Origin: Macrostomum lignano
Lineage: Eukaryota
Assembly (NCBI GenBank): GCA_002269645.1
Contig: NIVC01000106.1
Location: 744,001-808,000, forward strand
Direction of reading: 5' to 3'
Length of the DNA stretch: 64,000 nt
In this document: positions 23,801 through 41,800 of the stretch, piece by piece
How positions within the stretch are numbered: position 1 is the stretch's first letter
Layout: each line of letters starts with the position of its first letter
The notes under the pieces: model-generated
The model's input: the letters and a program-made list of their open reading frames with translations, nothing else
Told to the model about the DNA's origin: nothing
The model's database searches: none
Translations under genes and position numbers: made by a program

Positions 23801-26800
23801 GCCGGTGGCCACGAAGCTGTCGGCGGCGTCCCTGCCGGCTGGCCGGTACTCCAATCGCCGACACCCGCCCGGAAGCGTCGGCAGCAGCGGCGGCAGCAGC
23901 CAGACGACCGAACGTCAGCGTAACACCGCCCGACGGCACCAGTCGATGAGCTCGGATCCGGGGAACAACGGCAGCAGGCCCGGCGACCCAAGGAGGCGTC
24001 GGCATCATCGATGGCCAGCGGCGCCGAGCGGCCATCGTAGCTCCAGCGATGTCGGCGATGAAGATCCAGACTGCACTGACAACGACGCATTGCGAGATTT
24101 CACTGAACATTATTACTACGACGATAATGACGATGACGATGAGTTTGATGATGAAGAAGACGAGATGCTGGGCGGCGGAAGTCCCGACTATCCAAGCTGG
24201 GACGAGGCTATCGGCTTCTGTTGGGGCGGTAAGGCGCTCAAGGACTGCTGGGAGTGACAAGGACTTTTAGACTAGAGATCTGGATTGACTCAAGAGTTCT
24301 AGACCAGACTCCAGTACTTCTAGAATAAAGACCTCGATTGAGTCAAGGACTTCTAGAATAAAGACCTCGATTGAGTCAAGGACTTCTAGAATAAAGACCT
24401 GGATTGAGTCAAGGACTTCTAGAATAAAGACCTGGATTGAGTCAAGGACTTCTAGAATAAAGACCTCGATTGAGTCAAGGACTTCTAGAATAAAGACCTC
24501 GATTGAGTCAAGGACTTCTAGAATAAAGACCTCGATTGAGTCAAGGACTTCTAGAATAAAGACCTCGATTGAGTCAAATACTTCTAAATCTAGGCCAGAG
24601 ATTTGGATAGATTCAAGGACTTCTAAAATAGAGTTTTGAAATATTGAAATTTTGATAAAATTTTGGGTTTGTTTAAATGTACTTTATCAAAGTAAATTTA
24701 GAAGTAGAAGGCATGAGGGGGCTTCTGGGACAAAATTTTTCACCTCCTCCATAATCCCATTAAATCCATCCATATTATCCCTGACAGAATCAGAAAAAAA
24801 GGGGGGTCGCACCTGCTCCAAAAACGTCCTCCATAATCCCATTAAATCCATCCATATTATCCCTGACAGAATCAGAAAAAAAGGGGGGTCGCACTCGCTC
24901 ACAAAACGTCCTCCATAATTCCATTAAATCCATCCATATTATCCCTGACAGAATCAGAGCATTATCCCTGACAGAAAGAAAAGAAACAAAGACTCATTAT
25001 ATTTTATTTAAGATTTAAGATTATATTTTATTTTCGTAAAGGTGTTTTATGTTTACTAACAAACGACGACTGCAGAATCTTAAATCGAAACTAATTTATT
25101 CGATGACTTTCAATCGCTCTCTCCATTGCCACATTTGTTTGCAATTGATCGATCGTCTTGGATGTTATCGCACGACACTCTGGACATGTTATACTATTTT
25201 CTGCCGCATTGTACAAAGTTTGGACACATCTCAAGCAGAACGAATGCGGGCAGTCCAGCTTCCTAGAAGGCGAAAGCCAGTTGTAGCACACTGGGCATTC
25301 GCATCCACGCGGGATGTTTTCCCTCTCGCGGCTCTCCAACTCCTTCTCTTTAATTTGAATCTTTTCCTTTAGGTCTTTAACCACCTTCAAATAGTAATAA
25401 ATGAAACAATGCCATGATTAATGATAAAAAAGTACCCAGAAATACACAGAAAACACAAATTTCGAGTCTTACCTGCACTGATTTAAAAAATTCCGTATTT
25501 CTCTGAAGTGAACTTTCATTCCACACTATATATATAGTCTCTAGCGGACAGGTTTTGAGGTCGCTATCAGCGTGCAACGCGGTTGTCACATTTTGTGCAG
25601 TCCGTAGTTTTGACTTAAGATTTTGCAGTCGCCGTTTATCAGTAGCAGTTGAGGGCATATGTGGGGAGAAGCAGCCCGAGTGTTTCTGTGTTTGCTTAAA
25701 TATAGCTAGCCGTAGAAAATTCTAGAAAATTCCAGACTGTACAATCTTGGAGTCAAGCAGGGAAAACAATCGATATAGCTCAGTGTACGATAGAGCATGA
25801 GGCGTGTGAATGTGAGGGGTGAGACTTCTCTATAGACAAAGCATAGGGTGAGGAGGTGAGGAGCATGAAGGAGAAGCATGGTGGAAAGAGAGATTGTAGC
25901 CGAAACCAGTGTGCTCAAGACTGTACACTTGTGTGGAGAAAAGCGAAGCGAAGGCCAAAAGGCCAGTTTGCGATAAAATTTGGCCTTACTCGAGGCCAAA
26001 ATCCTTTGCGTTCTGGCCTTTTGGCCTTCGCTTCTTTTCGCTCCACACAAGTGGAGAGAGAATCATTCTGCTCTCTCAACCCCCAGCTCTTTCAACAGTC
26101 TTCCTAGTTCTTGACTTGGCGCGTGCAATGCAAAACCCACCCCACCTTCGCCTTGAACCCCCAACCCCAGTTTTGTCTTACTAAAAATAACAGCTTTAAC
26201 TAGCTTCCGAGCGATCGACTCACGAAATCCGCTTGAAGCCCCTATATTGTCTAGTCTCTTAAGCATTTCTTTGTCCCAACGATTCTTCTCCTCAGGAAAA
26301 TCTCTATATTTAACGTCATGCCACATGCAGACAGAGTCTAGCTCGTTCACAGGCTCATGCCCAGGATTTGGGTTGTTGTTTCCATCCAGCTGTATTTCAA
26401 GAGGATTCAAAGGCCCGCAATATTTATAGCCGGGAAGTGTCCAGCCTTTGTTTGGATGAGGAAGCTTTTCTATCAGTCCATGTGAATCTATTTTACCACC
26501 AGAGCGCTGCATTATTTTATTTAAAATTTTCTTTTTAAATAAATGACAGATCAGAAACTTAAAAAACTCTACTACAGCGACAAAGGATTCTTTGTAGGCA
26601 AAAATGCTGTTAGTAAACTCATGGAGCTGAGTAAAGAGCCAAAAGCTACAGTAGAAAAATGGCTCTCTAAGCAGGCTGTCTTTCAAGTCTATTTCCCACC
26701 AGTAAAATTTGAAAGGCCCCATTTCAGTATTTATAAACCTAATGAAGCGCACCAAGCAGATCTTTTGTTTCTCCCCAACGACTCAGGCTACAAGTATGCT

Positions 26801-38800: not shown

Positions 38801-41800
38801 TTGACGTTAATCATTGAGAGAATGTGAGAAATCACAATTGCCTAATGATTTCTGCAAAGTTATAGTAGCTGTCATAATCTTTTACATAGGTTACTCCATA
38901 CTTATGAAACCAATGTCTTTGGAGAGCTTGATTAATATTAGGGACATTGATTTGAACGTCGGGCCAATATTTTCTCATGTATTCGCTGCATTCAAGTTTG
39001 CATCGGTACTTACTCTTGTAATTAGGCTCGTGCGTTTTGTAATAAGAACCTGGAGAGACAACTGGAAACATTTTTATTGAAAATTTAATTTTTTTCAAAG
39101 GGTAAGGACCCTGCGCTGATGATTTAAAGTCTTAGGGATCTGGTTTCACGTTGCGGATTGAATGTGGGGAGAAGAATGCAGATTATTTTCTGATTGTTTC
39201 GAAGATGCTATGGGTGGATGTCAGTGGATTATGTCAGTGTCAGTGAGCATAACAGGTGTCCTACTGTTATGCTCTGATTCTGTCAGGGATAATGCTCTGA
39301 TTCTGTCAGGGATAATATGGATGGATTTAATGGAATTATGGAGGACGTTTTGTGAGCGAGTGCGACCCCCCTTTTTTTCTGATTCTGTCAGGGATAATAT
39401 GGATGGATTTAATGGGATTATGGAGGACGTTTTTGGAGCAGGTGCGACCCCCCTTTTTTTCTGATTCTGTCAGGGATAATATGGATGGATTTAATGGGAT
39501 TATGGAGGAGGTGAAAAATTTTGTCCCAGAAGCCCCCTCATGCCTTCTACTTAGAATAAAGACCTCGATTGAGTCAAATACTTCTAAATCTAGGCCAGAG
39601 ATTTGGATAGATTCAAGGACTTCTAAAATAGAGTTTTGAAATATTGAAATTTTGATAAAATTTTGGGTTTGTTTAAATGTACTTTATCAAAGTAAAATAC
39701 CGGATACAGTTTTTAGGGAGAAAAAATTATCGTTTAGTATGTTTAAGCAAAACAAAAAACAAAACGGTTTCCTTTTCATAAAATTGCAGAGGCCGACAGA
39801 AGAAATCCTGAAGCGATTGATGCTAAAGTGAAGAATTTTCTCTCAGTGAGTTGCTTGAAATTGCTGACACTGAGGTTGAACAGCGTCAGTCTTACCAAAG
39901 TGTTTAAAACAGCCTCCTAATATTCGTGGCTCCAACAGCCTTCCCGAACTAGTGCAGCCCCGAAGCAGTGCCCCCTCCCCGAAGCAGTGCCCCCTCCCAG
40001 AAGCAGTGCCCCCCCAAAGCAATTGCTCTGCTCAAAGACAACTCGTTTCCAACACTTCTCAAGTCTGCGAGAAGCACGATAGGTAAATATCAAATCCCCT
40101 CCCCGGTCCCAGCCCAGCACCTGCGCTCTCTTATCTAACCCGCCGCACTTTAATCCACTCAATAATCCTGTTGCACTTTAATCCACTCAATAATCCTGTT
40201 GCACTTTAATCCACTCAATAATCCTGTTGCACTTTAATCCACTCAATAATCCTGTTGCACTTTAATTCACTCAATAATCCTGTTGCACTTTAATTCACTC
40301 AATAATCCTGTTGCACTTTAATTCACTCAATAATCCTGTTGCACTTTAATTCACTCAATAATCCTGTTGCACTTTAATTCACTCAATAATCCTGTTGCAC
40401 TTTAATCCACTCAATAATCCTGTCGCACTTTTATCCCGCAGCACCCAGTCACGTGGCAGTTATCAAAGGATGGCAGCCGCCTCATTGGGCACATGCTATT
40501 AAAGAAGGACACGGATCGGGCTGGAAATTGTGTAGACTTGGGTGAGTCAGTATATTTTTATCATCTATTTCTACTGTTAGGTTTTATCAAAGCGAGACTA
40601 CTGTTAGTAAAGCAAATCGATCAGAAAATAGATTCACGGAAAAAAGTGGCGCCAATAGTATTTAAGGCTTGTGTTCATTTCTGATTTTAATAAAATCTTC
40701 CTACGAAACTCTGGGAATGAAATTTGCACAAGCATTAGGGAGAAAAATGAGCAGTAAGGAGAGGGGAGAGAAAGAAGAGGAGAGAGAGAAGGGCACATTT
40801 AATAGCTCAGGCGCTGACACGATAAAAAGAACAAAAAAGTCCATATTACAGGTGCGGACATTTCGAGTTAGGCTATTCTTCGTCAGGGCATCAGGGAGAG
40901 GGGAGAGGAGGGAGAGAAGGGAGAGAAGGGAGAGAAGGGAGAGAAGGGAGAGAAGGGGGAGAATGGGGAGAAGGGAGAGAAGGGAGAGAAGGGAGAGAAG
41001 GGAGAGAAGGGAGAGAAGGGAGAGAAGGGAGAGAAGGGAGAGAAGGGAGAGAAGGGAGAGAAGGGAGAGAAGGGAGAGAAGGGAGAGAAGGGAGAGAAGG
41101 GAGAGAAGGGAGAGATGGGAGAGAAAGGAGAGAAAGGAGAGAAAGGAGAGAAGGGAGAGAAGGGAGAGAAGGGAGAGCTGGGAGAGAAAGGAGAGAAAGG
41201 AGAGAAGGGATAGAAAGGAGAGAAGGGAGAGAAGGGAGAGAAGGGAGAGAAGGGAGAGTAGGGAGAGAAGGGGGAGAAAGGAGAGAAGGGAGAGAAAGGA
41301 GAGAAGGGAGAGAAAGGAGAGAAGGGAGAGAAAGGAGAGAAGGGAGAGAAGGGAGAGAAAGGAGAGAAGGGAGAGAAGGGAGAGAAGGGAGAGAAGGGAG
41401 AGAAAGGAGAGAAGGGAGAGAAGGGAGAGAAGGGAGAGAAGGGAGAGAAAGGAGAGAAGGGAGAGAAGGGAGAGAAGGGAGAGAAGGGAGAGAAGGGAGA
41501 GATGGGAGAGAAAGGAGAGAAAGGAGAGAAGGGAGAGAAGGGAGAGAAGGGAGAGCTGGGAGAGAAAGGAGAGAAAGGAGAGAAGGGATAGAAAGGAGAG
41601 AAGGGAGAGAAGGGAGAGAAGGGAGAGAAGGGAGAGTAGGGAGAGAAGGGGGAGAAAGGAGAGAAGGGAGAGAAAGGAGAGAAGAGAGAGAAGGGAGAGA
41701 AGGGAGAGAAAGGAGAGAAGGGAGAGAAGGGAGAGAAAGGAGAGAAGGGAGAGAAGGGAGAGAAGGGAGAGAAGGGAGAGAAAGGAGAGAAGGGAGAGAA

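Follow-up and report, generated by a model that had tools for sequence, protein, structure and literature searches.

A recent Polinton/Maverick copy with a spliced RING gene in a predicted RIM intron of Macrostomum lignano

Introduction

A stretch of 64,000 nucleotides from Macrostomum lignano (Eukaryota; GenBank assembly GCA_002269645.1, contig NIVC01000106.1, positions 744,001 to 808,000 of the forward strand), referred to here as the window, contains a Polinton element of 14,849 bp at positions 24703..39551, in what appears to be an intron of a synaptic RIM gene. An initial annotation, made from the letters alone, had described it as a complete, recently inserted, adintovirus-like Polinton and as a candidate novel system. 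How recent is the insertion? Are its genes intact? What is a spliced RING gene doing at its left end? And how much of this is new? It is quite probable that the element is a recent copy of a large Polinton/Maverick family which is likely still spreading as an integrating, capsid-forming DNA virus, and whose left cargo slot here holds a spliced, transcribed RING gene coding for a predicted ubiquitin ligase expressed while the element is integrated. The kind of element is familiar; the spliced and transcribed RING gene with its distinct promoter is an unusual passenger, and the point worth following. The regulation of integrated animal Polintons and the formation of their virions are a largely open field, to which a young family with more than 100 copies, insertions that are polymorphic, modules for capsid and ATPase that reassort, and a spliced accessory transcript would bring a concrete gene and promoter that can be tested.

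A recent copy of a large family

The features at the two ends of the element are the following.

24703..24976, plus strand: left terminal inverted repeat (TIR), 274 bp, first bases AGTAG, with 2.6 copies of an 82-bp unit
39278..39551, minus strand: right TIR, 274 bp, also with 2.6 copies of the 82-bp unit
24552..24696, unstranded: host flank duplication, left copy, 145 bp, 100% identical to 39552-39696
39552..39696, unstranded: host flank duplication, right copy, 145 bp, identical to the left copy
24697..24702, unstranded: six extra bases at the left junction, missing at the empty loci

The TIRs are 100% complementary to each other, as the initial annotation had it, and together with a length inside the 13-25 kb range they are those of a Polinton/Maverick. 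The element is one recent copy among more than 100 in the host genome, a multiplicity that had been missed. Searching the genome with the window ATPase gave at least 144 matches (144 scored among 703 candidates), and 22 of them are identical in protein; the terminal 29-mer has 188 exact matches, compared with 0 for the control. Two sisters differ from the window copy by 11 and 13 substitutions along 14.8 kb (identities of 99.7% and 99.6%), the element is absent from two homologous RIM loci (empty sites), and 20 runs of 7 studies contain the stretch. This makes the insertion recent, as had been claimed, and not a contamination; a chimeric origin, named at the time as a possible refutation, is further countered by the occurrence of the family on many host contigs with target-site duplications (TSDs).

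Twenty other two-ended copies were compared (21 with the window copy), all shorter than about 19.5 kb and picked from the first 100 termini listed. Among these 20, a 6-bp TSD is perfect in 16, matches at 5/6 bases in two and is missing from two, and TIR length among the two-ended copies runs from <200 to 1,124 bp. Some members have been rearranged. A 3.8-kb deletion derivative (L079, G000:C105:570682-574517) keeps both termini and fragments of the capsid genes and has no PolB, integrase or TSD. The G000:C110 copy harbours, inside its PolB gene (L047:5500-7770), a DIRS-like retroelement with tyrosine recombinase and RT/RNase H-like frames, and in the G000:C70 copy (L045:3900-6030) the MCP region is replaced by a Gypsy-like RNase H/integrase stretch.

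But how did the window copy itself enter the intron? It has no 6-bp TSD; instead, the 145-bp flank, a single copy at both empty homologous loci, is duplicated, an aberration that had been overlooked along with the broken reading frames discussed below. The six extra bases and five adjoining ones form an 11-nt reverse-complement match to 24579-24589, equalled in 24 of 2000 shuffles, and were possibly templated from this nearby flank. In retroviruses, according to an excerpt of PMC5041404, integrase can join one end while host enzymes deal with the other, giving duplications of hundreds of bp. By analogy, the 145-bp duplication and the six bases suggest a one-ended integration. In the mechanism proposed here, the element would replicate by protein priming from its TIRs and integrate by its own integrase, normally with a 6-bp TSD; in the window copy, the integrase would have joined the right end and host repair the left end, leaving the 145-bp duplication. 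The comparison is made from assembled contigs, and the duplication may have arisen in the assembly, which weighs against this account. Could the junction then be an artefact in which an empty haplotype was joined to a filled one? A 33-bp minisatellite adjoins the site, the duplicate is 100% identical and two empty homologues exist, as such an error would have it. An artefact would still have to provide six bases that both empty loci lack and that match the nearby flank in reverse, and to leave the termini of the element intact; we regard it as rather unlikely and keep to one-ended integration as the working explanation.

Core genes

Does the element encode a virus? Its predicted core genes, from left to right, are listed here.

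26063..26509, minus strand: phospholipase A2 (PLA2), parvovirus-type, candidate for membrane entry (PF08398, E 1.8e-13)
26543..27579, plus strand: retroviral-type integrase (rve), one frameshift as assembled
27596..27940, plus strand: adenovirus pX (mu)-like core protein (PF05829, E 2.7e-7)
28172..31978, plus strand: protein-primed DNA polymerase B (pPolB), with vOTU-like motifs and an EndoVII/HNH-like insert (PF03175, PF02945), many frameshifts as assembled
32038..32438, plus strand: adenain-like maturation protease (PF00770 above cut-off in another copy), frameshifted as assembled
32405..33111, minus strand: conserved open reading frame (ORF) with two hydrophobic segments, weak Pfam matches only, frameshifted as assembled
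33220..33950, minus strand: conserved coiled-coil ORF, frameshifted as assembled
33967..34767, minus strand: A32/FtsK-type packaging ATPase, 266 aa (PF04665, E 3.6e-6), open frame
35065..35412, minus strand: small ORF with an amphipathic-looking stretch, conserved across copies
35429..36625, minus strand: Gln-rich conserved ORF, 398 aa, median dN/dS 0.22
36656..37939, plus strand: major capsid protein (MCP), model matching the PBCV-1 capsid in Foldseek (E 3e-10), frameshifted as assembled
37964..38827, plus strand: predicted minor capsid protein (mCP, penton), 287 aa, adjoining the 3' side of the MCP gene, open frame
38832..39071, minus strand: subterminal ORF, 79 aa, open in 20/21 copies, dN/dS 0.28

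A Pfam scan of 27 window pieces, in which broken genes were rescanned as the unbroken natural frames of other copies, matched on the window pieces rve, DNA_pol_B_2, EndoVII, Pox_A32 ATPase, PLA2, Adeno_PX, RING and, weakly, a double jelly roll (DJR)-like family. These profile matches and the fold matches back the Polinton gene set that had been read from the letters. The integrase has an rve match of E 2.7e-5 in the window piece and of E 7.4e-9, above the cut-off, in another copy, and its translation shows DDE-like motifs, as expected of a Polinton. The pPolB assignment comes from PF03175, above cut-off with only 60 bits on 881 aa; its translation has the Exo and Pol motifs, and at the N-terminus the Cys/His motifs of an OTU, the domain looked for in adintoviruses, can be read by eye. 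There are 894 protein relatives of PolB at E<=1e-20, the best of them 46% identical (to a piece of PolB). The HNH/EndoVII insert had been considered as an unusual trait and was rejected, PF02945 being common among 120 listed relatives. A packaging ATPase (PF04665) and an adenovirus-like protease (PF00770), both marks of Polintons, are present, with the His, Asp and Cys motifs of the protease readable in the window translation. The YxGP and HDxxY motifs of PLA2 align to parvovirus VP1 with weak E, and the window pX is shorter than that of its sisters (148-155 aa in many copies).

What of the capsid? An MCP model built from 10 sequences, using the unbroken natural frame of another copy (mean pLDDT 53), matches the capsids of PBCV-1, mavirus and PRD1, so that the fold is, at the medium confidence of this model, the double jelly roll of Polintons. 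A single-sequence model reached pLDDT 31, and an MCP profile found no match among PDB sequences. The predicted mCP has Atlas matches (0.98) to unnamed viral proteins and no match in the Pfam scan. Nor was there a Pfam match for the small ORF at 35065..35412, for which a protein VI/cupiennin-like protein is no more than a lead. The 79-aa ORF is frequently doubled, lying within the longer TIRs of other copies. An IMG/VR scan with the ATPase gave 5 pattern matches, 0 of them confirmed.

The capsid and packaging genes are under purifying selection. For open frames, the median dN/dS, taken over pairwise values among copies that are not independent, is 0.077 for MCP (13/21 copies), 0.065 for mCP (16/21), 0.084 for ATPase (12/21) and 0.15 for the integrase (12/21).

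Broken reading frames

Is the element complete, as had been stated? Its gene list is, by the Pfam matches and the MCP model; its reading frames are not, since most core ones are broken as assembled: frameshifts affect the integrase, pX, pPolB (in many pieces), the protease, MCP and two of the minus-strand ORFs. The frameshifts probably are, for the most part, consensus or assembly errors in an unpolished repeat. The breaks fall at different places in each copy. Compared with the column-wise majority, PolB of the window shows 11 deletions of 1-2 nt but 0 substitutions of its own, and 20 aligned copies together show 174 indels of 1-2 nt in PolB vs 226 private substitutions. Between the window and its two closest sisters there are 18-22 small gaps vs 11-13 substitutions, and the excess of indels is put at about 3 to 1. 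At 12 listed gap positions, the letters are present in the contigs of all 4 runs compared, contigs that pool all family copies.

Two points weigh against assembly error: homopolymers show no enrichment of the 1-nt deletions (29/121 vs a background of 21%), and with a comparison that again rests on assembled contigs the decay of the window copy may be real. Might it be a genuinely defective copy, decayed or already dead when it inserted, for whose replication other members provided the functions in trans, and of which only the RING cassette is still read? Its frameshifts are many, PolB is in a single open frame in just 1/20 other copies, deletion derivatives such as the 3.8-kb copy occur, and certain gap positions are common to several copies. 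These common gaps are partly alignment ambiguity, and some three indels per substitution between near-identical sisters, at breaks that differ from copy to copy, fit consensus error better; we give little credence to a truly dead copy and take assembly error as the probable cause.

The RING gene

The left cargo slot, with the left TIR on one side and the core genes on the other, contains the following features.

25091..25384, minus strand: RING exon 2, C3HC4, TRIM-like (Pfam zf-C3HC4 above cut-off, E 1.5e-7)
25385..25472, minus strand: RING intron, GT-AG, 88 nt, phase 0, joined in contigs of runs X4, X14 and X18
25473..25658, minus strand: RING exon 1, 62 codons; the spliced product has 159 aa
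25695..25704, minus strand: TATA-like box, predicted promoter, about 46 nt 5' of the RING ATG
25054..25093 and 25605-25644, unstranded: arms of a 40-nt inverted repeat, 85% complementary

Is this gene really spliced, and is it read? The predicted splicing was borne out: the joint across the 88-nt intron is found in contigs of 3/4 runs (X4, X14 and X18, from 3 studies; not X1), of which the first three were guessed to be RNA and X1 DNA. A 656-nt contig of X14 covers both exons with 0 differences from the window. The gene lies antisense to RIM. Summed contig depth over RING is about 25,000 in X4 and about 60,000 in X18, where core bins reach at most 160 and 1,191 respectively, and in the DNA-like run it is 834 vs 52,000-206,000 over core bins. 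The core genes are covered at low depth in the RNA-like runs, possibly by DNA carry-over.

The cassette belongs to the family. At 10 RING-cassette loci the DNA identity is 96% or more, and among exon 2 variants protein identity falls as low as 43%; each of the 20 loci examined from the RING DNA search sits in element sequence, and the 13 element-type loci of the RING protein search (L118-L130) also carry it. The intron is retained in element variants, including one that is 49% identical. The inverted repeat, which sets the start of the coding sequence against its stop and 3' UTR, is present in close variants and mostly undetected in divergent ones; the ends of the mRNA could pair through this 40-nt complementarity. 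In L099, L100 and L105-L107, decayed RING cassettes adjoin the 3' sequence of the protease and not PLA2, which suggests rearranged or related subfamilies.

What does it encode? The product is likely a ubiquitin ligase, as predicted from the C3HC4 zinc ligands of a RING-HC E3. The nearest solved RING structures are those of TRIM69 and TRIM32; of the RING, B-box and coiled coil that make up a TRIM protein, the 159-aa product has a C-terminal RING and no B-box in the Pfam scan. Host-like RINGs are 33-43% identical and a near-identical host copy was not found among them; a tree with 10 host-like RINGs (75 columns) has no starred branch and lacks resolution, so the donor gene is not named.

How could this gene be read from an integrated element? 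An AT-rich stretch ending in an A-tract precedes 11/13 other element ATGs, compared with 4/514 background ATGs. The RING ATG has no A-tract, and a TATA-like box is found in 6/6 variants printed (15 loci tried). From these promoter motifs we infer that host Pol II transcribes RING from the TATA-like promoter, early or during latency, and that the other element genes would wait on their common A-rich start signal. Herpesvirus ICP0 and baculovirus IE2/PE38 are RING E3 ligases. Like them, the gene here is presumably a small RING gene of a virus, with an intron and a promoter of host type, plausibly expressed first; its product, by analogy with ICP0-type RING proteins of herpesviruses, might ubiquitinate a host defence or silencing factor. 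If RING is indeed an active ligase directed against host defence, it would be a Polinton counter-defence gene of the type found in large DNA viruses. The analogy can be extended to a two-stage programme, in which a captured, spliced TRIM-type RING with a host-type TATA promoter would be the dominant transcript of a silent provirus and act like ICP0 against host silencing, replication and capsid genes would follow on a separate A-rich signal, and terminal slots would be exchanged through a recombination point at the hairpin described below; in this full form the programme is distinctly unlikely.

Several findings weigh against a transcribed RING gene with a function in the window copy. Contig depth is a poor measure of expression, unable to rank genes, and the depth excess of RING is a hint only; in X14 it is slight (89 vs 9-76). 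The identical RING frame occurs in 4/7 near-identical copies, so the RNA is not assignable to the window copy. RING is present in only 3/21 two-ended copies and is thus dispensable. Among close variants, dN/dS is 0.3-2.3 and not significant where tested; positive selection was considered and rejected (dN/dS 2.2 in one pair, p 0.19).

Is RING then a passive hitch-hiker or selfish cargo that does nothing for the cycle of the element, comparable to the toxin-like cargo in nematode Mavericks? It occupies the same TIR-to-integrase slot as the intron-bearing nematode cargo in an excerpt of bioRxiv 2022.07.12.499685, other copies have unrelated cargo or none, and close RING variants show no clear constraint. 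Over longer divergence the picture changes: inside elements, exon 2 has diverged to 43-52% identity, with saturated dS and dN near 0.47, and the intron and the eight zinc ligands have been retained; a near-identical host copy was not found, the best host-like RINGs reaching 33-43%. We consider a passive passenger somewhat unlikely, and retain a RING ligase expressed from the integrated element as the preferred explanation.

Cargo slots, module exchange and repeats

RING fills a swappable slot, in which other copies have different genes. The regions inside both TIRs vary among the 21 two-ended copies, whose cargo is RING in 3, helical orphan family A in 6, B in 5 and C in 3, and a tyrosine-recombinase-like gene in 1; one cassette is at the left end in one copy and at the right end in another. 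The three helical families (L073:2563-3243, L044:4832-5509, L047:1383-2201, L058:174-1010) are proteins of 225-300 aa with hardly any database relatives and C-termini that look helix-turn-helix-like by eye. Family A, in which a DUF3102-like helix-turn-helix is a mere impression, has 2 relatives in 1.8 billion proteins and no Pfam, PDB or convincing Atlas match; its relationship to family B was tried and found weak (HHalign probability 7.8%). The recombinase gene, Crypton-like with a weak QRICH1 match, is in the left slot of the G000:C819 copy (L063:1016-2622) and adjoins part of the minor capsid gene, copied there in inverted orientation.

Core modules are exchanged as well. Measured against the window, ATPase comes in two types with about 79% and 97% identity, and MCP/mCP likewise in two, with 76% and 98%; they reassort on a PolB that is 95-100% identical. 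Two repeats lie beside cargo and ATPase.

25921..26058, unstranded: long hairpin at the cargo/core boundary, z -13.9 on the plus and -12.0 on the minus strand
34806..34973, unstranded: 21-bp x 8 array of repeat units, directly upstream of ATPase

The hairpin had been reported as large, and its z of -12 to -14 agrees. At other loci, one variant has an exact internal flip and several keep one arm joined to other sequence; the flipped isomer and the single arms favour a DNA fold-back or recombination point over an RNA gene, and the hairpin would serve as such a point at the cargo boundary. Could it be a small-RNA gene instead, a pri-miRNA or VA-RNA-like? The fold is very stable, and an Rfam scan gave 3 weak matches, all below gathering score, among them mir-240 (E 0.012, far below). 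A small-RNA gene is hard to reconcile with the flip and the single arms, with folding on both strands, and with G-U-compatible changes that favour opposite strands in different copies; a Pol III A/B box pair and a T-run terminator were looked for beside the hairpin and not found. This alternative is very unlikely, and a DNA recombination point is the preferred role.

The internal array, also present as had been described, has 3-9 units in 14/19 copies scored; the remaining 5, all of the second ATPase type, have a related unit instead. It would be a protein-binding site tied to the ATPase module, possibly a promoter or packaging signal. The packaging signal of adenovirus consists of A-repeats. 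The pairing of array and ATPase type is also explained by simple linkage.

Comparison with known systems

How new is the element? The papers compared here are represented by excerpts, and what is said of them holds for those. Near-identity to a described element, which would have removed the novelty, did not surface: the best protein identities are 78% for ATPase and 78% for MCP (both unnamed) and 46% for a piece of PolB, whose named nearest relatives are cnidarian (Stylophora, Hydractinia, 41-43%). An undescribed host lineage, one half of the novelty claim, is thus plausible from these identities. The other half, a novel system, falls: the gene set, the slots and PLA2/pX have been published for Mavericks or adintoviruses, and so have terminal accessory regions and intron-bearing cargo between left TIR and integrase.

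With the Polintons/Mavericks of vertebrates (Polintoviricetes; Barreat and Katzourakis 2021, PMC8097293), the family shares a length of 12-25 kb, TIRs, AG...CT ends and a 6-bp TSD, the genes for pPolB, integrase, ATPase, protease, MCP and a predicted mCP, an accessory region at either end, and capsid genes under purifying selection. Intact vertebrate elements are described there as having no introns, unlike the spliced cargo here; the ends here are AGTAG and not (AGT)2 or (AG)3, copy number is high, and the 6-bp TSD is missing from the window copy.

Adintoviruses (Starrett et al. 2021, PMC8502044) share adenain, FtsK ATPase, hexon, a predicted penton, integrase, PLA2, a pX-like protein and OTU-like motifs in PolB. 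Their accessory genes as given there are PLA2, pX, IAP, Bcl2 and Oncoid, and IAP, Bcl2 and Oncoid make host-modifying cargo usual; a stand-alone RING gene is not named in the text excerpted. Is the element then an adintovirus of the Alpha or the Beta type? The archetypal PF03175 PolB and PLA2X fusion of Alpha are lacking: the PolB match has the modest score given above, and PLA2 and pX, instead of being fused, form two ORFs that lie on opposite strands. PolB is divergent, as in Beta, and gasdermin and cupiennin, for which Beta has genes (GasderminX, cupiennin), gave no match in the Pfam scan of window pieces. The weak PF03175 match is thus Beta-like, yet PLA2 is described in the excerpt as a mark of the Alpha module.

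Nematode Mavericks with wasp/krma cargo (Widen et al., bioRxiv 2022.07.12.499685) have a variable region between left TIR and integrase and intron-bearing cargo that is exchanged by recombination, as here. The cargo here is a TRIM-like RING or helical orphans, no fusogen was seen among it, and the slots are at both ends, with the same cassette at either, which differs from what is excerpted of the nematode elements. Coral polintoviruses (PMC11131425) resemble the family in their many copies per genome and in the cnidarian affinity of PolB, though PolB identity is only 41-46%; expression of core genes has been reported for them. Jeong et al. (PMC10748475) counted 748 integrase-linked pPolB1 in 8/73 flatworm genomes. 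A literature search, with most subscription journals outside its scope, found no paper on RING or E3 cargo in Polintons and none on Polintons of the host genus.

Host gene and neighbourhood

The exons of the host gene around the element are these.

14709..14891, plus strand: RIM zinc-finger exon, 5' of the element (RIM2 zinc finger structure, E 7.9e-10)
42200..42421, plus strand: RIM PDZ exon, 3' of the element (RIM1/2 PDZ structure, E 5.9e-15)
51820..52125, plus strand: RIM C2B exon (RIM1 C2B structure, E 4.5e-36)

For all three pieces the top structure matches are RIM1/RIM2, and the predicted gene is synaptic RIM, as the initial annotation had named it. The placement of the element in a RIM intron follows from the position of a predicted GT donor (24230) and of the PDZ exon (near 42170). 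Almost every intron of the window has its own minisatellite; directly 5' of the PDZ exon, a 9-bp minisatellite at 40896-42112 translates as a collagen-like GEK frame. A widely spaced 71-nt inverted pair, 97% identical (18718-18788 and 51386-51456), probably represents two copies of a small dispersed repeat. Downstream of RIM, on the minus strand of 57091-60298, lies a host gene in which 59060-60298 encodes a von Willebrand A domain, together with another open frame of 434 codons.

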